DNA from: Pseudomonadota bacterium
GTDB taxonomy: Bacteria; Bdellovibrionota_B; Oligoflexia; Oligoflexales; RGVZ01
DNA: 64,000 nucleotides
Reading direction: 5' to 3'
Assembly: GCA_041178085.1 (NCBI GenBank)
Contig: JBEGVZ010000104.1
Coordinates: 3,719 to 67,718 of the forward strand
The position numbers were made by a program, and so were the translations under genes. Positions 10,203-59,318 of this stretch are shown piece after piece. Under the pieces are notes generated by a model, which was given only the letters and a program-made list of their open reading frames with translations, searched no databases and was not told the DNA's origin. The first letter of the stretch is position 1. Each line of letters opens with the position of its first letter.

Positions 10203-10628
10203 ATGCTCAAGAGAGAAGCCATCGCAGTCTGGAAGGGAACTGGCAAAGACGGCAAGGGAGTCCTGACAACCCCAAGCGGAACGCTGAACAACACGCCATA
10301 CTCATTCCACACCCGCTTTGAGAACGGAAAAGGGACAAACCCAGAGGAATTGATCGCTGCAGCTCACGCCGGCTGCTTTGACATGGCCCTCTCGTTCATG
10401 CTCACAGGGGCCGGGTTTCCTCCGGAAGAGCTGAAGACCACGGCGACCATCGTGATGACGCAGGAGGGCGTCCACTGGACGGTGACTGAAGCGAAACTGG
10501 ACCTTCATGCCAAGGTGCCACAGATCACCAACGAAAAATTCCAGGAAATTGCCCACCAGGCAAAATCTGGATGTCCTGTTTCCAAGCTTTTCACAGCGAA
10601 GGTTACCCTGGACGCCCGGCTGGTGTAG
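10203..10628 (+). CDS. osmC: OsmC family peroxiredoxin
   Basis: GTNPEELIAAAHAGCF and CPVSK motifs; AAGGAG RBS. Confidence 0.93.
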   Translation: MLKREAIAVWKGTGKDGKGVLTTPSGTLNNTPYSFHTRFENGKGTNPEELIAAAHAGCFDMALSFMLTGAGFPPEELKTTATIVMTQEGVHWTVTEAKLDLHAKVPQITNEKFQEIAHQAKSGCPVSKLFTAKVTLDARLV

Positions 10629-10656
10629 TGCAGATGATCATGAACGGATTGATCGA

Positions 10657-11922
10657 TTAATCAAAGAAACCACGCAGGAAGACGTTTTCGCGCAAGACAG
10701 TCTGGTATGAACCAGCGTCTTCCTCTGGTTTCAACTTGATGACCCGTCCCCGCGCATCGTTGGCCTGAATGAAAACATCTCCCGAAGATACGTCTACCGC
10801 TAGCGCACCGATGTCATCCACGGTCGGGGTCTCATCAAAAGATTTCTCGAACTTTGTCCCGTCAGCGAGCAGGCCAGAAACCTTGAGCGACAAGGCAATC
10901 CCAAAAAAAGACACATCGCACAACGACAGATAAAGATTGGCTCCAGCAAAACCGGGGCCGGCATCCAACAACTTGACGCCATCCAAGATACCGGTGCAGT
11001 CAAGGCCCGGAACGACTCCACTGTTGCCTGCCAAAGCAACGCTCGCATTCGACACGGAAAAAAGGCGCGCGCCGTCCGAACCCCCAAAAACCACTGCCAG
11101 GCTGGATGAATCAGGCGCAAAAATCCCGGAAACATCCTCTTGATCCGGAATGCTTGAATCCAGCCATGCCGCTGGCGGTTTGCAAGCACCGTCTGAAAAC
11201 GGCAAGAAACTTTTCAGCAATCCGGACTTTCCGCCGACAAAAATGCGTGACGACCCAGCATGCAAAAAAACTTTTTTCACCGCAAAAGACAAATCACTGG
11301 ACTGGAAACACTCGAGCGCCGTCGACGCCATGTTCGCAGAGGCATTGCTGGCGGAATAAAGAGCATAACTGCCGGTTTGAGTTCCCATCACAAGCACGAG
11401 CAGGCCATCCTGCGAAACAAACACGGATTTCTTTTTCTCAGAAAAAGCGGATGGCAGGGAGAACGTCTCGTCCTGCCATGTGGACTGACCCAGATAACGG
11501 ATCACTTTGACGGAGTCCGCGCCCGCACTGACAAAGGCCATGGCGGCTGCATCCGCGGCAGAAGCCCAGTTTTGGGTCGTCCGTTGATCCGGAATACTGA
11601 ATTCACGGGCAGCGCCACTGGCGTCTGTCACTGTCAAGGTTGCAGGGCGAACGATGGCAACGGCGTCCAGGTTGGGCATGGCCTGGACCGAAATAATGTC
11701 GCCACTGGCACCGAGGTGAGCCGTCTCTGAAAGATCAACCGCATCAAACCACGAGATTCGCTGCGCGGCTTCACTGAAACCGAGAAAAAAACTTTGCTTC
11801 TGGACCAGGGTTTTGCGGACCACGATCTTTGCAATTGGCTGGTTTCCGGTCGGCGAAATAGCACCAGATGAACATGCCGTGACCAGAGAAAAAGCGATAA
11901 GAATCAGCGCAGCATGGTTCAC
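10657..11922 (-). CDS. Hypothetical lipoprotein B, beta-rich (propeller-like)
   Basis: Lipobox SLVTAC; 421 aa; 4-bp overlap with the upstream caspase gene. Confidence 0.7.
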   Translation of the reverse strand: MNHAALILIAFSLVTACSSGAISPTGNQPIAKIVVRKTLVQKQSFFLGFSEAAQRISWFDAVDLSETAHLGASGDIISVQAMPNLDAVAIVRPATLTVTDASGAAREFSIPDQRTTQNWASAADAAAMAFVSAGADSVKVIRYLGQSTWQDETFSLPSAFSEKKKSVFVSQDGLLVLVMGTQTGSYALYSASNASANMASTALECFQSSDLSFAVKKVFLHAGSSRIFVGGKSGLLKSFLPFSDGACKPPAAWLDSSIPDQEDVSGIFAPDSSSLAVVFGGSDGARLFSVSNASVALAGNSGVVPGLDCTGILDGVKLLDAGPGFAGANLYLSLCDVSFFGIALSLKVSGLLADGTKFEKSFDETPTVDDIGALAVDVSSGDVFIQANDARGRVIKLKPEEDAGSYQTVLRENVFLRGFFD

Positions 11923-13598
11923 TTCAACCTCCTGGCACGCGCACCAAATCGCGCCTCGATGCCAACATAAAGAGCCGCGTTGTCCATACGGACATCGCCA
12001 AATTCACCGTAAGAAAAACTGGTCCGTTCGTAGCGCAAGCCGGCAAGCAAATTGATATCCTCGTCAGCTCTGAGCTTTTGTCCGGCTGATGCATCCAGTC
12101 CAGTCAATAACGAATTACCCTTCAGTGAGGCAGCTGATCCACTCCTGCGATCCTTGAGCGCGACAGAGAGGTCAGCCGAACCGATGGATAAGGAGCCCGT
12201 CACGAAACGACCATCCAGTCTGACCAAGCGCAACCCGCCCTCGACTTTCATCCCCTTCAAGCTGGATTCGGTCCTGATCCCCGCGGCTTCGCCCATTTTT
12301 GAGACCATCGCGGACTGGAAACCGCCGATCCCGAAATAGACGGGCCAAGCTGTCTGCAGGCCAGACCATGTCCCCCGCAATGTCGTGATATTCATTCCGC
12401 TGGCGGGGACGATCTTGCGCGCACCGCTGTCCTGCACCCATGCACGGGACAAGTCCAGGCTGGCAGCCCAAGGCGCTGGCTTGACAACCTCATCAAGCGC
12501 TACGGTTTCACCTTCCCGTGCACGAACAGAAAAAATCGCGACTGGTTTTTCTCCCTCGGGAGGATAAACCTCGACGATGTTTGTCCCCTCCTTCATCACA
12601 AAACCAGATGGAATGGTTCCTTTCTCGCCCCCACGCACCTGTACGGCGTATCCCTGAAGGGAATTTTCGTATGCGGTCAACACCGGCAAGCCACCTTGCT
12701 GCCGCTGTCCGGAGAGGGGAAAGTCAAACTTGCCCACTGCCTTGCCTTCCAAAGTCGGGCGTTGGGCGCCACGGGTCATCGCCCAGGTCTTTTGTCGCGC
12801 GTAGTCGTGAGCCTCGAGAGCCGTCACCTGACCATTGGCATCGCGGTCGCCCGCCTTCAAGGATTCAAGAAAAAAGTGCGTGTAAATATCGCCCTTCAAA
12901 GACACTTCCTCACGCGCAGTCTCGCCGCGTGCTGCCGCTGCAAAAATCAAGAAACCCTCTGATGAGGCCTCGTCCATGTCAAAGGCGCTGGCGGCGACGC
13001 GGCCCTTGTTTCCGGCCATCAACTCCTGGGCTACAGGACTCAACCTGGATTTACCAACTCCAGAGTGGCAGGTCGCAAGGATCAGGAGTTTCCTGCGCGC
13101 CGGGATCCGGTCAAGCATGCGACGCAGTTCATTATGAGAGATCCCGGTCGACAAAGACTTGTCGGACGAGGTGTCATGCATCACCAGAACTTGTGCAAGA
13201 TCGCCACCCTGCCCGCCCGGGGCAAGGGTCCCATGACCAGAAAAATAGACAATCAACCGGTCCGACGGATTTACCCGCTCACGCAACCGCTCGAAAATGT
13301 CACGCACGGCCTTGGCCGATGCCGACTGATTTTCCAGCACCAGTGTCTCGGCCGGAATGTCCGAGCCTCGGGCGATTGAGGCAGCAAAATTGCGGGCATC
13401 CAGCGCCGCAAATTTCAGCGTCGGCCAGAAGCCGTCACGATATCGATCGACACCCACTGACACGATGATTGTCCGTGCTGACTTGGCCTTAGCTTCCGTC
13501 TGCGGCCCCGGAGCCCCAATGGCTCGCGTTGCCAGGACAAAACACAGGCTGCCTGCGAGCAGGAATGCGGACACCGGCATTTTCAGGATTGCCATCAT
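11919..13598 (-). CDS. Exported caspase-family (peptidase C14) protein with beta-barrel-like C-terminus
   Basis: Signal peptide; VGVDRY, LKFAALDA, YFSGHG (His) and LATCHSG (Cys) dyad, YTHFFLESL, QRP; amphipathic strands in the last ~190 aa. Confidence 0.85.
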   Translation of the reverse strand: MMAILKMPVSAFLLAGSLCFVLATRAIGAPGPQTEAKAKSARTIIVSVGVDRYRDGFWPTLKFAALDARNFAASIARGSDIPAETLVLENQSASAKAVRDIFERLRERVNPSDRLIVYFSGHGTLAPGGQGGDLAQVLVMHDTSSDKSLSTGISHNELRRMLDRIPARRKLLILATCHSGVGKSRLSPVAQELMAGNKGRVAASAFDMDEASSEGFLIFAAAARGETAREEVSLKGDIYTHFFLESLKAGDRDANGQVTALEAHDYARQKTWAMTRGAQRPTLEGKAVGKFDFPLSGQRQQGGLPVLTAYENSLQGYAVQVRGGEKGTIPSGFVMKEGTNIVEVYPPEGEKPVAIFSVRAREGETVALDEVVKPAPWAASLDLSRAWVQDSGARKIVPASGMNITTLRGTWSGLQTAWPVYFGIGGFQSAMVSKMGEAAGIRTESSLKGMKVEGGLRLVRLDGRFVTGSLSIGSADLSVALKDRRSGSAASLKGNSLLTGLDASAGQKLRADEDINLLAGLRYERTSFSYGEFGDVRMDNAALYVGIEARFGARARRLK

Positions 13599-13607
13599 GT
13601 GTTGTGC

Positions 13608-14372
13608 CTACTTCTTGTCTCCGTCACTTTGGGGAATTCCGCCGACCTTGACGGTCTGACACTCCATCATCGCCGGCAAATTGCCACCTGGTTCGCGCAG
13701 GGGTGGAATCAACAGGGCAAGATTTTGTCGCGAAGTTGATCCCACCGCACAGAACCTGATCTTTCCAGTGTTTGCTGGCAGAGCCAGCTTCCAGATTTCC
13801 CCGGTCGGGTCGCGGTCGGGAACGAGCAACGCACCCTCCTGCCCCGGCAACAGATAACCTGCCGAAATCACCTGGTGGGACTCACTCTCCCGCTGGAATG
13901 TGACCAGCGCATATTTGCCTTCGGCCCCGCGCACCATGAGGGCCACAAGAGTCCCCGGACGGACTTCAGCCTCTGTATCAATTGCCAGAAAACGGTTACC
14001 AACTTTCACTTCCATGACCTCAAGGGATACTGGAAGGATGTCTCCCGCGCCCTTGAACCCGCCACCAGGAAGAACTGTGTCCGAATCCGTCATGACACCT
14101 GAACCACCTGGTAAATAAACATACAGTGCAATTGCAGCCGCAAGAGGCAGCACAACGGCAAGGGGCCACCAACTACGGCGACCGGCGCTGATTTGCGATT
14201 CAATCCGCTGCCAAACACGGCGACGGGTCAAGTCGTCCACTGCCGGGGAACCCGCTGCGCGGAATCCAGCCTCCGCTGCACGTATGAAGGCCTCATCATC
14301 GAGCAGCCGACCTTGGTCCTTCAACTCATCTGGAGGTGTCTTATTTTCGTCGTTTTTACCCATTGGCTTCAC
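13608..14372 (-). CDS. Putative membrane-anchored anti-sigma factor
   Basis: Short cytoplasmic N-terminus (RRVWQRI), single TM helix (WWPLAVVLPLAAAIALYV), FKG then beta-rich extracytoplasmic domain; overlaps ECF gene stop. Confidence 0.7.
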   Translation of the reverse strand: MKPMGKNDENKTPPDELKDQGRLLDDEAFIRAAEAGFRAAGSPAVDDLTRRRVWQRIESQISAGRRSWWPLAVVLPLAAAIALYVYLPGGSGVMTDSDTVLPGGGFKGAGDILPVSLEVMEVKVGNRFLAIDTEAEVRPGTLVALMVRGAEGKYALVTFQRESESHQVISAGYLLPGQEGALLVPDRDPTGEIWKLALPANTGKIRFCAVGSTSRQNLALLIPPLREPGGNLPAMMECQTVKVGGIPQSDGDKK

Positions 14373-14971
14373 CCATTGCCATCTTCTCTGGTTCCACCCC
14401 GCGCAAGAATCCTTGCGCGCAGCCTTTCACGCAGGCGCGTCAAACGCGAAGTCACAGTTCCGACGCTTTCGCCGCGGCGCCTTGCAATTTCCGCCACGGG
14501 CAGCCCCTGACGGTAAAAAAGAGCCAGAGTATCTCCCCCTGGTTCACTGGCAACCTCGTCCATCAGGTGTCCAACCAGTGCGAGTTCCGCCTCCCGCTCC
14601 GCCATCTGGACAGGATCGTCACTGCCGCCAGCATTAAAGCCCGGTGCTTGACCTTCTGCCGCCATCTCAACCAGATCTGCCGGCTCAACCGGGATTTGCC
14701 GGTGGCTGCGGCGGATCGCGTCAATGCATGCATTCCGCGTTGTGACTGCAAGCCAGCCACGCAAGGACTTTGAGTCCTTGATCGTGCCCGCGCCATTTGC
14801 CAGTTTGATGAACACTTCCTGCACAACATCCTCCCGCGACTCACGATTCGCCAGGTACTTTCCGGCGATGAAGAAAACGAAATCCGCGTGACTTTCCCAC
14901 GCACGTTTCAGCGCGGCGTGGTTGCCGCGCTGAATCTCCACCAGGTCGTCTTCTTCAAGTTTGCTGTGCAT
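14369..14971 (-). CDS. ECF (group 4) RNA polymerase sigma factor
   Basis: Region 2 (EDVVQEVFIK, WLAVTTRNACIDAIRR) and region 4 HTH (AEIA...GTVTSRLTR); start 14971-14989. Confidence 0.92.
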   Translation of the reverse strand: MHSKLEEDDLVEIQRGNHAALKRAWESHADFVFFIAGKYLANRESREDVVQEVFIKLANGAGTIKDSKSLRGWLAVTTRNACIDAIRRSHRQIPVEPADLVEMAAEGQAPGFNAGGSDDPVQMAEREAELALVGHLMDEVASEPGGDTLALFYRQGLPVAEIARRRGESVGTVTSRLTRLRERLRARILARGGTREDGNG

Positions 14972-15010
14972 TAACCCGGAATATAGCACAGCACGGACCC
15001 TGGATCATTT

Positions 15011-16306
15011 CTAAAACTTCGCCTGCAGCGCATCGTCCAGGTTGAACCATTCCATGTTGAGGACGTTCTCGGGCCGCTCAATTTCAATCCGGGACATCGC
15101 ACCAAAAATCGAGGGTTTAATGTCGAACACGTACTGCTCGGTGAGGGCGAATTTTCCTCCGAACTCCATCCTGGGCCGACCGGTCACCAGGCTGTCCTTA
15201 AGGCGAACCTGGTAAATCTGCTGCATTGAACCAGCATAGGCTGCCGCCACAAAGGTCAGTTTGTCCCCTGCCTCATTGACGAAAGACTGAGACGGCTTAG
15301 AGGAGATCGCCAACAGCTTATGGCTGGTGATCTTACCTGACGGACCGACCATGAAGAAGTGGACCAATCGGTTTGGCCCTTGTGAAACATAAGCCATGTG
15401 CGGCCAGCGCCCACGGTACTCACCAACGAAAACCAGCGAAGAATCCAGTGCAACCTGCTCGATCACAGCCATGGAATCCACGTCCACGATGGAGATCTTG
15501 TCTTTCTCCCGCACCAATACCCGTGATTTTTCCCCGCGCAGCGGCAAGGCCGACTCAAAGACCACACCTGCGGGAATGGTAACTGGCACCAGTTCAAGTT
15601 CTCCCTTGGCAATTGCCTGGGACATCGCGACCCGGTAAATTTTTTCGGCCGAACTGCGAACTAACAAAGTGTCTGTGCCGGGGATGACTATCGCCGAGCG
15701 GATTTGCTCGCTAGAATCCGGAATGACTGATCCAGCCAAAACATGGGCCAGGACTTGTCCATCTGGACTGATCTGCAACAACGCCAAGGAACCCAGGTCA
15801 TCGCTCAGCGCCAGGATGCCGTCGGGCTGTGACGATCCCGGCACAGCGGGAAGCTCAGTGTAGGCACGCTGCCCAATCTTGCCCTGGAGACGAACGGGAT
15901 TGCGATCGATTGAGCCGTCTTCCCGCACGATGAAGTATTCGTCGTCCGCAACCGCAATGACATACTTGCCACTGCTGCTGCCGATCACCCTTGCCCCATC
16001 CAGGCAACGACTGCGCGGAGAAGGCGAGTCACAAAATGGAACGGCGAACTGCCGTTCGATCTGGAATTTGGAAATCGACAGAGAATAGATCTTTCCCGTC
16101 GCATCATTTGCCAGCCACAGCCGGTCATTGTCGACGTTTGAGTTCATCGAAGAGGCAAAGTTGACGACGTCGTCCCCAAGGTCAATGGTCGATGAAGCAC
16201 CATTTCTGTCGTTTGAACATGCACCCTGAACAAGGGTCGTGATGATCGAAACAATCAACACCTTTGAAGCGGCAAGCCTCGTTTTTTTATTTTTTTGAGC
16301 TTTCAT
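15011..16306 (-). CDS. Hypothetical lipoprotein A, beta-rich (propeller-like)
   Basis: GGAGGA RBS before ATG 16306; lipobox LVQGAC; repeated short beta strands. Confidence 0.7.
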   Translation of the reverse strand: MKAQKNKKTRLAASKVLIVSIITTLVQGACSNDRNGASSTIDLGDDVVNFASSMNSNVDNDRLWLANDATGKIYSLSISKFQIERQFAVPFCDSPSPRSRCLDGARVIGSSSGKYVIAVADDEYFIVREDGSIDRNPVRLQGKIGQRAYTELPAVPGSSQPDGILALSDDLGSLALLQISPDGQVLAHVLAGSVIPDSSEQIRSAIVIPGTDTLLVRSSAEKIYRVAMSQAIAKGELELVPVTIPAGVVFESALPLRGEKSRVLVREKDKISIVDVDSMAVIEQVALDSSLVFVGEYRGRWPHMAYVSQGPNRLVHFFMVGPSGKITSHKLLAISSKPSQSFVNEAGDKLTFVAAAYAGSMQQIYQVRLKDSLVTGRPRMEFGGKFALTEQYVFDIKPSIFGAMSRIEIERPENVLNMEWFNLDDALQAKF

Positions 16307-16364
16307 TTTTTGTCCTCCTGATAAGTCGATTTTTAATCCCCGAATCACATTTCCGGCGCAGCCT

Positions 16365-17066
16365 TCAGAAGCGCAAGGTAAGTCCCGCCGACCATTCGGA
16401 CTGGAATCCTTTGTCTTCAAAATCAAGAATGTCGATCTTGACCGGCAAAATCCGCGCTGAGCCACCAAGGTCCCCGCTTAAGTGGTCACCAAGCGTGGCA
16501 ACCAGGGAAAATCCGGCAAAAGGACCGACTGTGGCGGACTCTTCCTTCTTTTCAAGATACCCGTCGCTCAGAGTGAAGGTGCGCCGCGCATGAGAAGCGC
16601 CAAGACGCAACACGAATGCACTTGTTTGCGGACGCAGAACCAAGCGGGTCGTCACAGCGGCAGTTGAAACGTCGGAGTAAAACCCCATTCGAAGGGGACC
16701 AGTGGACGGGCGTACGTTCATTGGCTGCTGCCCTGCGGAAGCGAGCATCAATCCAAGGCGTTTTCCGCTCACCTCAATGAAAAGGCCGCCCATGCTGTAC
16801 TGCTCTTTCAATGGGCTATTACGGAATTTTTGGCCGTGATACTGGCCCGTGCCCAAGTAGGCACCTACCGCCGCCTCGATATCCCCGGGCAGAAGTTTTG
16901 CAGAGCCACCCCGGTTTTCTGATACGGTCTCATTGTCTTCATCAGCGTCGCGCCTTGCACCGACAGCTGGGTTTGAAATTGAAACCAGCACTGCGGCCAT
17001 CATGAGCCTGAAAATCACGACAACCACGTTTGACCGGACATCTTTTTTGAAACATGCTTCGTTCAT
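16365..17066 (-). CDS. Small outer-membrane beta-barrel protein
   Basis: GGGAGGA RBS; signal peptide; C-terminal WSAGLTLRF with terminal Phe. Confidence 0.7.
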   Translation of the reverse strand: MNEACFKKDVRSNVVVVIFRLMMAAVLVSISNPAVGARRDADEDNETVSENRGGSAKLLPGDIEAAVGAYLGTGQYHGQKFRNSPLKEQYSMGGLFIEVSGKRLGLMLASAGQQPMNVRPSTGPLRMGFYSDVSTAAVTTRLVLRPQTSAFVLRLGASHARRTFTLSDGYLEKKEESATVGPFAGFSLVATLGDHLSGDLGGSARILPVKIDILDFEDKGFQSEWSAGLTLRF

Positions 17067-17124
17067 GGAAAGTCCTCCCACAAGAAAAGACGCAGGCAGG
17101 ACCGTTTTGCTGCACTGAAATCTA

Positions 17125-17142
17125 AGATATTTGTAAATATCT
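17125..17142. promoter_or_regulatory. Perfect palindrome AGATATTT-GT-AAATATCT, candidate operator
   Basis: 8-2-8 inverted repeat in the AT-rich divergent intergenic region. Confidence 0.5.
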
Positions 17143-17160
17143 GTTTTTAATGGGGTTTTT

Positions 17161-18363
17161 ATGGTGAAAGTGTTTAAAATCAGGCTGGCTGGGCTGCTGC
17201 TGGCAACCACAATCGTTTCTGCCTGCCAATCTTTCCGGCGCGGCATCATCAGCCTGATCCCTTTTGACCAGGCACAAGCAGCCTCCGGCGAAACTGGATC
17301 CTTTCTGCAACCAAAAGAGGCTCCTGCGAACCAGAAAGCTGCCCTGAGGTTACAGATGGTGGCCAAGGGCTTTAACAACATCACCGACGTTGAATTTTTA
17401 CCCGGAGAAAGCAAGCGCGCCGTGGTGCTGGAGAAAAGCGGCACCGCGTGGCTTGTTGACCTGGCTGAAAATCGCCGTGTCGAGCTGTTCAAAGTATCTG
17501 TCGCCACAACTTCGGAGCTCGGCTTGCTTGGCCTTGCTTTCCATCCCGGCTTTGAACAGAACGGCAAATTCTACGTGCACTTCAATCCGCGAAAGGACTT
17601 GTCGCGCGTCTCGGAATGGAACTGGAAAGCAACAAAAGGCGCAAAAAATCGGGAAGTTGAGGCAACGGAAGTCCGTGTGTTGCTGGAACTGGACCAACCC
17701 TATCAGAATCACAACGGCGGCAGCGTGGTCTTCGGACCCGATAAATTGCTGTACATCGGATTTGGGGACGGGGGCTGGCGAGGCGATCCCGAAAATCGGG
17801 CGCAGGATCCGACCACTTGGCTGGGCAAGATGTTGACGATCGATCCTGACAAACCCGGGGCAAAACCCGTGATTTTCGCCAGCGGACTGCGTAACCCGTG
17901 GAAGTTCAGCTTTGATGCGCGCGGTCGCCTGGTGGCCGGCGATGTTGGTCAAGACAAGTGGGAAGAGATCACTTTTGTCGAACGCGGCGCCAATCTGGGA
18001 TGGCGCATATACGAGGCATCCCACTGCTACGATCCCGGGCGCGACTGCGCAAAGAAATTACCGAACGCCCTCGGCCCCATCGCGGAGTACGATCATTCGC
18101 AGGGCGCGAGCGTCACGGGCGGGTATGAATTCGGCGGCAAGGACGTCGACGCCATCCGAGGACGGTACGTCTTCGGGGATTTTGTGTCAGGGCGGATTTG
18201 GAGCATTATCTTGCCTGACAAGACACCAGCCACCCCCGTTGGGATCAAAGATTTCCGGTTTCATGGCAAATGGGAAATCCTGATATCGACTTTTGCGCGC
18301 GATGCCGATGGCCAGCTTTACGTCGCGGACTACAGCGGTGGTGCCATCTATCGATTGCGCTGA
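17161..18363 (+). CDS. PQQ-dependent sugar (glucose/sorbosone) dehydrogenase family
   Basis: ELGLLGLAFHP, NHNGG, GDGG, GLRNPWKFSFD, GDVGQ, WEEI. Confidence 0.92.
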   Translation: MVKVFKIRLAGLLLATTIVSACQSFRRGIISLIPFDQAQAASGETGSFLQPKEAPANQKAALRLQMVAKGFNNITDVEFLPGESKRAVVLEKSGTAWLVDLAENRRVELFKVSVATTSELGLLGLAFHPGFEQNGKFYVHFNPRKDLSRVSEWNWKATKGAKNREVEATEVRVLLELDQPYQNHNGGSVVFGPDKLLYIGFGDGGWRGDPENRAQDPTTWLGKMLTIDPDKPGAKPVIFASGLRNPWKFSFDARGRLVAGDVGQDKWEEITFVERGANLGWRIYEASHCYDPGRDCAKKLPNALGPIAEYDHSQGASVTGGYEFGGKDVDAIRGRYVFGDFVSGRIWSIILPDKTPATPVGIKDFRFHGKWEILISTFARDADGQLYVADYSGGAIYRLR

Positions 18364-18420: not shown

Positions 18421-18497
<77 letters not shown>

Positions 18498-18600: not shown

Positions 18601-19548
18601 TCAGGCGTCGGCTTCCAACAGTTCCCTCTTCTCTTGGAGCCTCTCTTGGAGCCTCTCTTGGAGCCTCTCTTGGAGCTTCTCCTTGAGCTTCTCCTTGAGC
18701 TTCTCCCGGTGCACCCAGACGAAGAAAACCGCAGTCATGGCAATGAGATCCATGAATTCCCCCGGCACCCACATGATCAGGCCGCCCAGGTGCTGGTCGA
18801 CATGATGGCCCCAGGTCCACCACCCAGGCACAGGACGTCCCTCGTAGGCATACCAGACCCGGTCGGCAAAGGTGAGGGCAACGGACAAGCCGACACTCGT
18901 GGCCATGATCGAGATCAAGAAAAGAATCCGCGCAGGCAAGGGCAAAGGCGCCTTCATCGGGTGCGGGTCTATGATGTTACGCCACAGCAAGATGGACGTG
19001 ATCGAGAACGTCCCGTGCTGGATCAGGTGATAGTAGTCATTAAGAAGGGCCAGATTGTACCAATAAGGAACATGCCAGAAGAAGAAATTGGCTTGGAACA
19101 GGATCAAGGCCGGCAGTGGCCGACTCAGGAAATTGAACACCCACATCAGCCTCCGCTGGCGGACCAGGGGGAAATAGACATGGCGTCGGGTCCAGGGCGA
19201 AATACCCCGAATCACGATGAAAAAAGGAATCCCAAGCATCATCAGGGGCACGCCGATATTGGTAACCATCAGGTGCTGGATCATGTGGACGAAGAACAGC
19301 TGGTCCGAAAGGGGGTCGATGGGCGGTACCAGGGACAGTATCAAGACCACTATGCCAGCGTAAAAACTGGCAATCTGCCATTTCTTGACCGGAAGCGGAC
19401 CCCGAAAGGCCTTGAGGCCACGCCAATACAGCCATGCCATGATCACAAACAAGATCAGAGCCGGATCCCAAGCCCATTTGACCACAAAAGACCCTTCGGG
19501 GAGGCGATCATAAAGGTCGTGGGCGTATGCGGTGCTGCTGAAAAACAT
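18601..19548 (-). CDS. ctaG: caa3-type cytochrome c oxidase assembly factor CtaG
   Basis: LFFVHMIQH, FWHVP, DQHLGGLIMWVPG; follows the oxidase subunits. Confidence 0.88.
   Translation of the reverse strand: MFFSSTAYAHDLYDRLPEGSFVVKWAWDPALILFVIMAWLYWRGLKAFRGPLPVKKWQIASFYAGIVVLILSLVPPIDPLSDQLFFVHMIQHLMVTNIGVPLMMLGIPFFIVIRGISPWTRRHVYFPLVRQRRLMWVFNFLSRPLPALILFQANFFFWHVPYWYNLALLNDYYHLIQHGTFSITSILLWRNIIDPHPMKAPLPLPARILFLISIMATSVGLSVALTFADRVWYAYEGRPVPGWWTWGHHVDQHLGGLIMWVPGEFMDLIAMTAVFFVWVHREKLKEKLKEKLQERLQERLQERLQEKRELLEADA
18631..18702. repeat. 12-bp tandem repeat x6 in the 3' end of ctaG
   Basis: CTCTTGGAGCCT x3, CTCTTGGAGCTT, CTCCTTGAGCTT x2; encodes KLKE-KLKE-KLQE-RLQE-RLQE-RLQE. Confidence 0.95.
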
Positions 19549-58136: not shown

Positions 58137-59318
58137 ATGAACAATTCGTCCGGGAACACCATTCCAGTCGTCCAGCACCGGATCGCCTTGCCCGCACTGG
58201 CAGCGATTACCACCACTGCGTTGGCCCTTGCCTTATCGACCGCCGCGCCGGCCGCCAAGCTGGAGGGCCTGAGCCCCGCCGTCGTGAAACGGATCCAGAC
58301 GGCCAACACCAATTACAAGGAATGTCAGCAGGCGGCAATCACTGCCTTCAACTCGAAGCTAATCAATAAGGTCAAGTTTGACTCTGCGCTAGATGCCTGT
58401 CGGGAACGCTTCCCCGCCATAAGCCTTTACGGACAGTGCAAACGGGAAGCCCTGTCCGCAGCTGCTGCTACGAAAAAAGATCCAGCCACGGCACTTGCCG
58501 AATGCAAAAAACTGCTGATCGCGGCGTCTTTTGACCGGGACCAGGACATTCCTTTTTTCACCAGCCGGGGCCAGTTGTTCTTTAGCGGCATCGGGATGAA
58601 CCGCCCACAGTCGATTGCGACGCTTGACCCACCCAACTTCGACTGTGACCGTTTGAACAAGGCGGTTGCCAACCCGCTGGAAGCGCAACACATCCTGTTC
58701 GGCAACCACCCTAAGGTATTTGCTGGCCTGGGCCGTCTGGCCGCCAAGGAAATTGCCACATTGGCGCGCCTGGAAGCTCCGTCCGGGGGCGACCGCAAAA
58801 GAGGCGCGGGGACAAAGGGGTTTGGGCGCGTGTTTGGGAATCTGGATTCGCCCAACGCGACGGTCTTTTTTCCCAGCGCTCCGTGTGATTTTGACGGTCA
58901 ATTAGGCAAATCATTTTCGGGCCTTAGCGCTTTTTACCTGATCGACAAGGAAGGCGCCGAAGCGACCCCTTATTTCGGCATCGCCTACTACCGTCCCGGG
59001 GTGAAGGAACTGACCACGAAAGGGCTGGTGACCAAGCTGATCGAACTGCTCAATTCCCGGGACAAGGCGGGCGGAGGCTACTCGGCGATCATCAAAAACG
59101 ACACGACCGCGTTTGTCGCGAAAGCGGAATTCCAGGATTTCGACGAGGAAAAGGACCCGCGCAATGTTTGCAGGGATCCTCGAAAACATGAATTCATCGG
59201 GATCGTCCAGGCGACCAAAGATAATCCCGCCAAGCCCCGCTATTTAGTAGTGGCCAACGTCAAGAATTTGTGCGAATACGGAGATCGCCTTGCCGCCCGG
59301 CTGACCGCCGAAAAATGA
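58137..59318 (+). CDS. Exported Cys-rich hypothetical protein
   Basis: Signal peptide; helical N-terminus with regularly spaced Cys; alpha/beta C-terminus. Confidence 0.7.
   Translation: MNNSSGNTIPVVQHRIALPALAAITTTALALALSTAAPAAKLEGLSPAVVKRIQTANTNYKECQQAAITAFNSKLINKVKFDSALDACRERFPAISLYGQCKREALSAAAATKKDPATALAECKKLLIAASFDRDQDIPFFTSRGQLFFSGIGMNRPQSIATLDPPNFDCDRLNKAVANPLEAQHILFGNHPKVFAGLGRLAAKEIATLARLEAPSGGDRKRGAGTKGFGRVFGNLDSPNATVFFPSAPCDFDGQLGKSFSGLSAFYLIDKEGAEATPYFGIAYYRPGVKELTTKGLVTKLIELLNSRDKAGGGYSAIIKNDTTAFVAKAEFQDFDEEKDPRNVCRDPRKHEFIGIVQATKDNPAKPRYLVVANVKNLCEYGDRLAARLTAEK

Follow-up and report, generated by a model that had tools for sequence, protein, structure and literature searches.

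In the RseA/DegS/RseP and FecA/FecR/FecI systems, a periplasmic cut near the membrane (site 1) is followed by a second cut, by RseP (site 2), and by release of the sigma factor. Here we describe a block of six genes, within a 64-kb stretch of contig JBEGVZ010000104.1 (the window), that encodes a sigma factor of the extracytoplasmic function (ECF) type, an anti-sigma-like membrane protein and an exported caspase-fold protease, and that may work by the same logic. The closest studied system is DdvA/DdvS of Myxococcus xanthus. DdvA is an anti-sigma factor fused to a periplasmic TPR-CHAT region, and trans-autoproteolysis ahead of RseP has been proposed for it; the fused protease-like domain is dimeric and has an incomplete active site (PMC11506125). 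In type III-E craspase, Csx29 cleaves Csx30, which controls RpoE together with Csx31, and DUF4384 makes up one of the classes into which the C-terminal domains of Csx30 fall (bioRxiv 10.1101/2022.08.17.504292). DUF4384 is also listed as an accessory domain fused to cyanobacterial orthocaspases (PMC7475262). Other reported links between ECF sigma factors and caspase-like proteins are the CHAT proteins in the genomic context of ECF54 (PMC8999054) and the EACC2-caspase systems with ECF sigma factors, which are cytoplasmic conflict systems (PMC8195603). A link between metacaspases and sigma factors was itself put on record in 2012, when Asplund-Samuelsson et al. placed four of the five metacaspases of M. 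xanthus DK1622 in predicted operons with sigma factors and noted the same operon structure in Anaeromyxobacter, Haliangium, Sorangium, Ralstonia and Fibrobacter (PMC3501461). This is the same association as the one considered here; the accessible sections of that report give it as an operon pattern, without an anti-sigma family, a barrel tether, a cleavage motif or a mechanism.

Like DdvA/DdvS, the present locus combines an ECF sigma factor, a single-pass anti-sigma-like protein and a predicted periplasmic caspase-fold domain with a His-Cys dyad, and the order of events that we propose is also the same, a caspase-type cut and then RseP. Unlike in DdvA, the protease is a separate C14 protein without TPR, predicted to be tethered to the outer membrane, and the anti-sigma-like protein carries a small DUF4384-like sandwich. 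With craspase the locus shares a caspase-fold protease paired with the linker of a sigma-factor regulator (cleavage of the linker being, here, a proposal) and a DUF4384 link, which in the g4 family described below is a weak match. However, craspase is cytoplasmic, RNA-guided and of the TPR-CHAT type, whereas the protease here is exported, comes without Cas7-11 and belongs to a different protease subfamily. No CBASS or CRISPR context was seen at the locus, although no search was aimed at either. The likeness to RseA/DegS/RseP and FecA/FecR/FecI lies in the proposed logic, in the presence of an RseP homologue and in the geometry of a relay from outer membrane to inner membrane to cytoplasm; unlike in those systems, the candidate site-1 protease is a caspase-fold Cys protease rather than DegS or Prc. 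The cassette is a variant of regulated anti-sigma proteolysis and not a new kind of system. What is new is the invariant juxtamembrane Lys of the anti-sigma family, the Lys-small motif of the caspase and the sub-threshold DUF4384-like sandwich. No experimental study of such a split, barrel-tethered cassette was found in the literature, with subscription journals and supplements lying outside the search.

The block comprises six minus-strand open reading frames (ORFs) at 10657–17066 of the window, which we named g1 to g6 in order of transcription:

16365..17066, minus strand: g1, an exported protein of 233 amino acids; ORF with a clear Shine-Dalgarno sequence
15011..16306, minus strand: g2, lipoprotein A, 431 amino acids; ORF with a clear Shine-Dalgarno sequence
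14369..14989, minus strand: g3, ECF (group 4) sigma factor, 206 amino acids, assigned by Sigma70_r2, r4_2 and TIGR02937
13608..14372, minus strand: g4, single-pass anti-sigma-like protein, 254 amino acids, assigned by its hydrophobic segment, AlphaFold2 model and synteny
11919..13598, minus strand: g5, exported caspase (C14), 559 amino acids, assigned by Pfam C14, AlphaFold2, Foldseek and a PDB profile search
10657..11922, minus strand: g6, lipoprotein B, 421 amino acids, assigned by its Atlas model, lipobox and position after the caspase

The genes are co-oriented and tightly packed, as a preliminary description of this DNA had it. g3 and g4 overlap by 4 bp, as do g5 and g6, both as GTGA start/stop overlaps, and the remaining gaps measure 58, 21 and 9 nucleotides (nt). 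No sigma-70-type promoter was found across 10300–17400, and no RNA data set is listed as containing the block. Curated families (Pfam and NCBIfam) were matched by only two of the six proteins, g3 and g5.

To place the block in a wider context, we used the caspase alignment to gather 160 related loci, of which 80 come from species genomes and 80 from metagenomes. By label, the genome loci divide into 43 Myxococcota-type, 12 'Deltaproteobacteria', 17 Gammaproteobacteria, Pseudomonadota or Proteobacteria, 5 Oligoflexia-type and 3 bacteria; Myxococcus, Corallococcus, Archangium and Hyalangium are all represented. Where at least 1700 nt of flank was available, a same-strand ECF gene ending no more than 1600 nt upstream of the caspase was present in 101 of 111 loci, with a median gap of 842 nt. 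An iterative profile built from g4 picked up one ORF in each of 137 loci, and at 124 of the 130 loci with room for it, a g4-family ORF was the immediate upstream neighbor of the caspase. The reverse search, in which the g4 profile was run against four genomes, gave 15 matches, and a caspase is encoded directly downstream of 11 of them, including all five strongest. These counts put the arrangement far beyond chance. The ECF sigma factor, g4 and the caspase are inherited together as a trio across Myxococcota, Oligoflexia-type and Gammaproteobacteria-labeled genomes.

The preliminary description had treated all six genes as one system, and only part of this stands. The general core consists of the three genes counted above. 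g6 is clade-specific, with relatives in 25 of the 118 loci with room, and g1 and g2 are confined to a narrow subclade, with relatives in two and five loci, respectively. The full set of six recurs in order at one locus (L096), at 33–54% identity and between unrelated flanks, and is likewise colinear at a second (L097), which is near-identical to the first and again has different flanks from the window. The poor conservation of g1 and g2 might be taken as a sign of a chance or purely syntenic grouping of unrelated envelope genes, as might the outcome of a search of six same-genus genomes (77–100% complete), in which neither the caspase nor the cassette was found. Such a grouping is hardly credible, contradicted as it is by the conservation of the trio across distant lineages, between different flanks and in both search directions. 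That the caspase was not found in those six genomes indicates that the block is accessory.

One 13-Mb Archangium genome contains six g4-family matches (L188, L192, L195, L198, L200 and L201), and for five of these a caspase is encoded directly downstream; the cassette is thus multiplied there into paralogous sets. The g4-family match at L193 (G044:C427), 1516–2220, carries a single in-frame TGA, and no caspase is encoded in the 1.5-kb flank; this copy is possibly in decay.

The protease, g5, has the following parts:

12708–13472, minus strand: caspase domain, residues 43–297 (AlphaFold2)
13233–13235, minus strand: codon of H122
13068–13070, minus strand: codon of C177
12483–12683, minus strand: immunoglobulin (Ig)-like sandwich, residues 306–372 (AlphaFold2)
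11928–12470, minus strand: OmpA-like barrel, residues 377–557 (AlphaFold2, Foldseek)

g5 matches Peptidase_C14 (PF00656) at 41.6 bits, against a cut-off of 21.4, and contains both catalytic motifs, SGHG and TCHSG. The NCBIfam model for caspases of the EACC1-associated type (NF047832) scored 76.8 bits, below its cut-off of 140. H122 and C177 show no variation across 41 aligned relatives, and in the locus sequences covering these columns they are found in 150 of 150 and 152 of 152 cases. The AlphaFold2 model, built on 41 relatives, has a mean predicted local distance difference test (pLDDT) score of 87.6 and begins with a signal-peptide helix; the strands of the C-terminal barrel are long, with pLDDT >90. 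In Foldseek searches, the caspase and Ig-like part matched MALT1 caspase-Ig3, Geobacter GSU0716 (3BIJ), metacaspases and caspase-9. MALT1 and GSU0716 were the best structural matches to this part (E values of 7e-13 and 9e-12, at sequence identities of 9–15%), but neither has a barrel, and the likeness is one of fold and not of pathway. The C-terminal domain matched the OmpA barrel (TMt 0.71–0.75). A profile search of PDB sequences returned metacaspase-4 at 2.4e-6 and OmpA at 0.006, and PF13505 is present on some g5 relatives. In 8-stranded OmpA-type barrels both termini are on the periplasmic side, so the protease should be suspended from the outer membrane's inner face. On this evidence, g5 is an exported, catalytically intact caspase-fold protease with a C-terminal OmpA-like 8-stranded barrel as its predicted tether, in the orientation just described.

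Lys/Arg-specific members of this group have an acidic S1 pocket, formed by an Asp after strand 1 and an Asp two residues before the catalytic Cys. In g5, D67 aligns with the first of these metacaspase residues, and Asp is found at this position in all 148 sequences; we take its counterpart to be the S1-pocket Asp after strand 1 of the Lys/Arg-specific metacaspases. At the second position, where metacaspases have the Asp of D-x-C, Ala is found in 152 of 152 g5-family sequences. E226 and E230 are also conserved in the family.

Two further caspases are encoded in the genome from which the window comes. One of them, on another contig (L001, 1369–2235, plus strand), is an exported protein of 288 amino acids with the motifs SGHG and DSCYSG. 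Its gene adjoins that of a large secreted protein, and there is no sigma gene in that locus, which implies that not every caspase of the genome is of the cassette type.

The two partners of g5 in the core were characterized in the same way. On its domain matches, g3 is an ECF (group 4) sigma-70 factor: Sigma70_r2 was matched at 55.8 bits (cut-off 24), r4_2 at 26.9 bits (cut-off 25.7) and TIGR02937 at 83.5 bits (cut-off 42.9), and no equivalog-level NCBIfam model reached its cut-off. g4 has a single hydrophobic segment, residues 71–89. Its AlphaFold2 model (mean pLDDT 76.9) comprises cytoplasmic helices at 26–39 and 47–65, a disordered linker at 87–106 and a confident periplasmic beta-sandwich at 112–243. 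With its GTGA overlap with the ECF gene, N-terminal helices, one transmembrane segment and extracytoplasmic domain, the protein fits the single-pass (class I/ZAS-like) layout. The features that the preliminary description had assigned to the two envelope proteins (for g5, a C14 peptidase with a signal peptide, an intact His-Cys dyad and a barrel-like C-terminus; for g4, an anti-sigma-like protein with one transmembrane segment and an extracytoplasmic domain) all recur in these analyses.

When the g4 sandwich was compared with the PDB by fold, only weak RhoGDI-like Ig sandwiches were returned. DUF4384 (PF14326) gave no match on g4 of the window, and matches at E ≤ 1 were found in five of 43 relatives, the best at 26.1 bits, below the cut-off of 27. 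These sub-threshold matches cover the second half of the sandwich of the family, and the periplasmic domain may be called DUF4384-like in this weak sense only. At the other end of the protein, an N-terminal H-x4-C-x2-C motif is present in 65 of the 137 family members (about half), and zf-HC2 was weakly matched in four of the 43 relatives (E values of 0.01–0.05). The family is large: in a library of 1.84 billion cluster representatives, an E-value limit of 0.001 gives 3728 members and one of 1e-10 gives 666; the best 150 of the 3728 are all 139–336 amino acids long. An RseP (Peptidase_M50) homologue is encoded in the genome of the window. No Pfam match to CHAT or TPR was found on the six proteins.

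An outer-membrane protein, a single-pass anti-sigma factor and an ECF sigma factor also make up the topology of cell-surface signaling. This raises the question of a non-proteolytic or reversed coupling, in which the caspase would act as a FecA-type transducer that signals by binding, or the DUF4384-like domain would regulate or inhibit a caspase that has its true targets among the propeller lipoproteins or elsewhere among the proteins of the envelope. The fusion of DUF4384 to caspases in other proteins would suit a regulatory domain, and the translational coupling of g6 to the caspase also fits. Yet the strict retention of the catalytic dyad speaks for the importance of proteolysis. Moreover, Pfam and NCBIfam gave no match to a TonB-dependent transducer, a FecR domain or RseA_N among the six proteins, and the lipoproteins are missing from most loci, so they cannot be the general substrate. 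We consider a coupling of this kind distinctly improbable.

Sequence conservation in g4 and g5 points to two Lys residues, whose codons are as follows:

14049..14054, minus strand: K107-G108 of g4, context GGFKGA, a candidate site-1 cleavage site
13002..13007, minus strand: K198-G199 of g5, context AGNKGR, a candidate autoprocessing site

The mean identity within the g4 family is 20%, and K107 is the sole invariant column, followed by the nearly invariant G108. Among the locus sequences covering the column, Lys is found in 135 of 135, with Gly next in 127. For the independent library of 1.84 billion representatives, the corresponding figures in the best 150 of the 3728 family members are 149 for Lys and 140 for Gly, with 13 of these 150 identical to locus ORFs. 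The motif can be written [G/R]-[V/L/I]-K-G. Its Lys lies a median of 12 residues past the transmembrane segment and, in the model, at the point where the disordered linker gives way to the fold. In the g5 family, the position of K198 is Lys in 152 of 152 covering sequences, and the next residue is Gly, Ala or Ser in 146 of them. K198 sits 21 residues past the catalytic Cys, in a loop (197–213) with pLDDT below 50. The loop after the Cys is where caspases are commonly processed. The residues before K198 resemble those before K107, in a similar P3–P1′ pattern.

We propose that the locus is a self-contained envelope switch, in which the caspase acts as site-1 protease on the anti-sigma factor at K107, a reading that we regard as evenly poised between right and wrong. 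In the first step, the caspase would be activated, possibly via self-cleavage in its own loop after K198. The active protease would then cut the anti-sigma factor after the juxtamembrane K107 (G/R-hydrophobic-K-G), with loss of the DUF4384-like domain, leaving a short stub for an intramembrane cut by the RseP homologue of the genome. The sigma factor, once freed, would transcribe the operon from an element upstream of g1. The K107-Gly pair, the matching K198 and the DUF4384-like domain lend indirect support to the idea that the caspase cuts the anti-sigma factor. A complex prediction for caspase residues 30–385 with anti-sigma residues 90–254, each partner being given as an alignment, scored 0.01 against a mark of 0.32 and counts neither way.

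The element from which the operon would be transcribed is the following:

17087..17114, minus strand: TGCAGC-N16-CGTCTT element, about 20 nt upstream of the Shine-Dalgarno sequence of g1

Its 28 nt consist of TGCAGCAAA-N10-CTGCGTCTT (9+N10+9), which we read as TGCAGC-N16-CGTCTT. The 9+N10+9 element is kept upstream of the g1 homologue in both L096 and L097, and the spacer surrounding it is not. We regard it as a candidate ECF-dependent operon promoter. The exact element occurs a single time in the 3.0-Mb genome and a single time in the window, and in a regulon scan of the genome only the operon's own site matched exactly. With two mismatches, 16 further genome sites were found versus 8 for a reversed control, a difference that is not convincing. 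The sole other site in the window within three mismatches of the element lies at 58503–58530 on the plus strand.

ECF sigma factors often adjoin their own target genes. With six genes that look like one operon behind one element, the sigma factor would induce the caspase anyway, and the sigma/anti-sigma pair might simply sense an unrelated envelope signal in the conventional way, with the caspase and the lipoproteins as its regulon. The neighbors of the trio vary widely (VWA/YfbK, LVIVD, RCC1/PD40, CarboxypepD_reg and NamZ), as diverse outputs would, and the S1 pocket without the D-x-C Asp also speaks for this model. What it leaves without explanation is the invariant Lys in the linker of the anti-sigma factor, mirrored by the Lys in the loop of the caspase. 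Nor does it account for the fact that this type of anti-sigma periplasmic domain is repeatedly tied to caspase-fold proteases, or that paralogous myxobacterial caspases each keep their own anti-sigma gene immediately upstream. We consider such an output role unlikely, though not to be dismissed lightly, and judge in the same way its corollary that the caspase acts on other substrates, be it in the turnover of proteins, in defence or cell death, or in the remodelling of the surface.

The three remaining proteins of the block, g6, g2 and g1, are less widely conserved. g6 carries the lipobox ..LVTAC (by eye), and its Atlas model is a 7-bladed beta-propeller of the YncE/lactonase type (TM 0.65–0.67 to propeller clusters); a PDB sequence search gave chance CheY matches only. 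In the 25 loci that have it, the g6 relative immediately follows the caspase in every case and in most cases overlaps the caspase stop. A lipobox-like Cys was recognized in 18 of the 25 relatives by regular expression and in the other seven by eye. g2, with the lipobox ..VQGAC (also by eye), is probably a beta-propeller too. Its language-model neighbors are lipoprotein, PD40 and lactonase-propeller clusters, where the score of 0.92 is to be read as a lead only. The relatives of g2 are found directly upstream of the ECF gene in five loci (L029 and L096–L099). No similarity between g2 and g6 was detectable by BLASTP (best E value 0.74), so that at the level of sequence the two do not fit the paralogous lipoproteins described for myxobacterial versions.

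g1 is a putative small outer-membrane barrel, a description resting only on its signal peptide, its pattern of alternating residues and its C-terminal Phe (...LTLRF). It had no match in Pfam, NCBIfam or the PDB, it matched only itself in a search of 5.8 billion clusters, and hhalign gave a probability of 2.4% when it was compared with the caspase barrel. Among the 160 loci, relatives were found only in L096 and L097, at 33–34% identity. These homologues (L096, 6446–7243; L097, 1172–1933) contain an acidic low-complexity insert (TETE/SESE/VEVE), the length of which differs between the two otherwise near-identical contigs, and have a lipobox-like ..GIAC that is absent from g1 of the window.

At the positions of g1 and g2, other near-clade loci encode unrelated proteins, namely a YfbK-like VWA protein, an LVIVD propeller, a LuxR-type regulator and a ceramidase-like protein. 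In the marine-type near-clade loci L105 (7187–8638) and L106 (7150–8619), an LVIVD-repeat propeller is followed by a YfbK-like VWA protein and then by the ECF sigma factor, according to Pfam; L110 (7300–8748) was grouped with them by position and size only. In these three loci, another set of accessory genes occupies that position. The downstream genes of the myxobacterial loci are also variable, with RCC1/PD40 propellers, CarboxypepD_reg repeats, NamZ and others. Within the proposed switch, g6 and, in the subclade, g2 and g1 would be clade-specific accessories that most probably provide the protease with input or gate it, and less probably serve as outputs. As to what might be sensed, the preliminary description had suggested contact or prey, and nothing in the analysis points to either; the 'ActD-like' neighbor that it mentioned was not seen.

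Several observations weigh against the proposed cleavage of the anti-sigma factor by the caspase. The zinc-type His/Cys motif is absent from g4 of the window, and no anti-sigma-caspase fusions were found, either among longer proteins, which is weak evidence, or in the best 150 of the 3728 family representatives. Given the Ala at the D-x-C position, a preference of the protease for a basic P1 residue is not assured. K107-G108 lies, in the model, at the edge of the folded sandwich, and the pair could be conserved for structure or binding instead. The caspase and the anti-sigma factor would be anchored in opposite membranes, to judge by their predicted topology. Conservation of the promoter-like element extends only to the window and two near-identical contigs. 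More generally, we infer all the biochemical steps of the switch, as well as its topology and its promoter.

The surroundings of the block were also inspected. A soluble-dehydrogenase-like gene, at 17161–18363 on the plus strand, lies between the block and a tRNA-Asp (GTC) gene at 18421–18497 on the minus strand, about 1.3 kb past the upstream end of the block. Since the caspase was not found in the six same-genus genomes, this tRNA gene could mark an insertion point. A membrane-protein ORF at 18601–19548 (minus strand) has at its end the tandem repeat (KEKL)n(QERL)n, which is mirrored by ORFs on the opposite strand.

For the most part, it is not known what caspase homologues do in bacteria, and cell death or defence is the usual frame in which they are discussed. 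The cassette is common, with 3728 representatives of its anti-sigma family and several copies per myxobacterial genome. Extending our proposal beyond this locus, we suggest that a large family of outer-membrane-tethered, periplasmic caspases might serve as dedicated site-1 proteases directed at Lys, every one paired with an ECF anti-sigma factor of its own, self-activated at the same hydrophobic-Lys-small motif that it then cuts in that partner, and gated by propeller lipoproteins where these are present. This broader statement is tentative, and we place it somewhat short of an even chance. The site-1 hypothesis is sharply testable, hinging on one Lys of the anti-sigma factor and on one Lys and one Cys of the protease, and Myxococcus, Corallococcus and Archangium are cultured, tractable carriers. 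If the broader statement is true, the cassette would be the split, free-standing counterpart of the logic of DdvA and of craspase-Csx30, and bacterial caspases would have a role in signaling across the envelope rather than in cell death. If the caspase is the site-1 protease, the cassette would represent a third caspase-fold route to the activation of ECF sigma factors, after craspase and the proposed DdvA mechanism, and the first such route with a protease tethered to the outer membrane.

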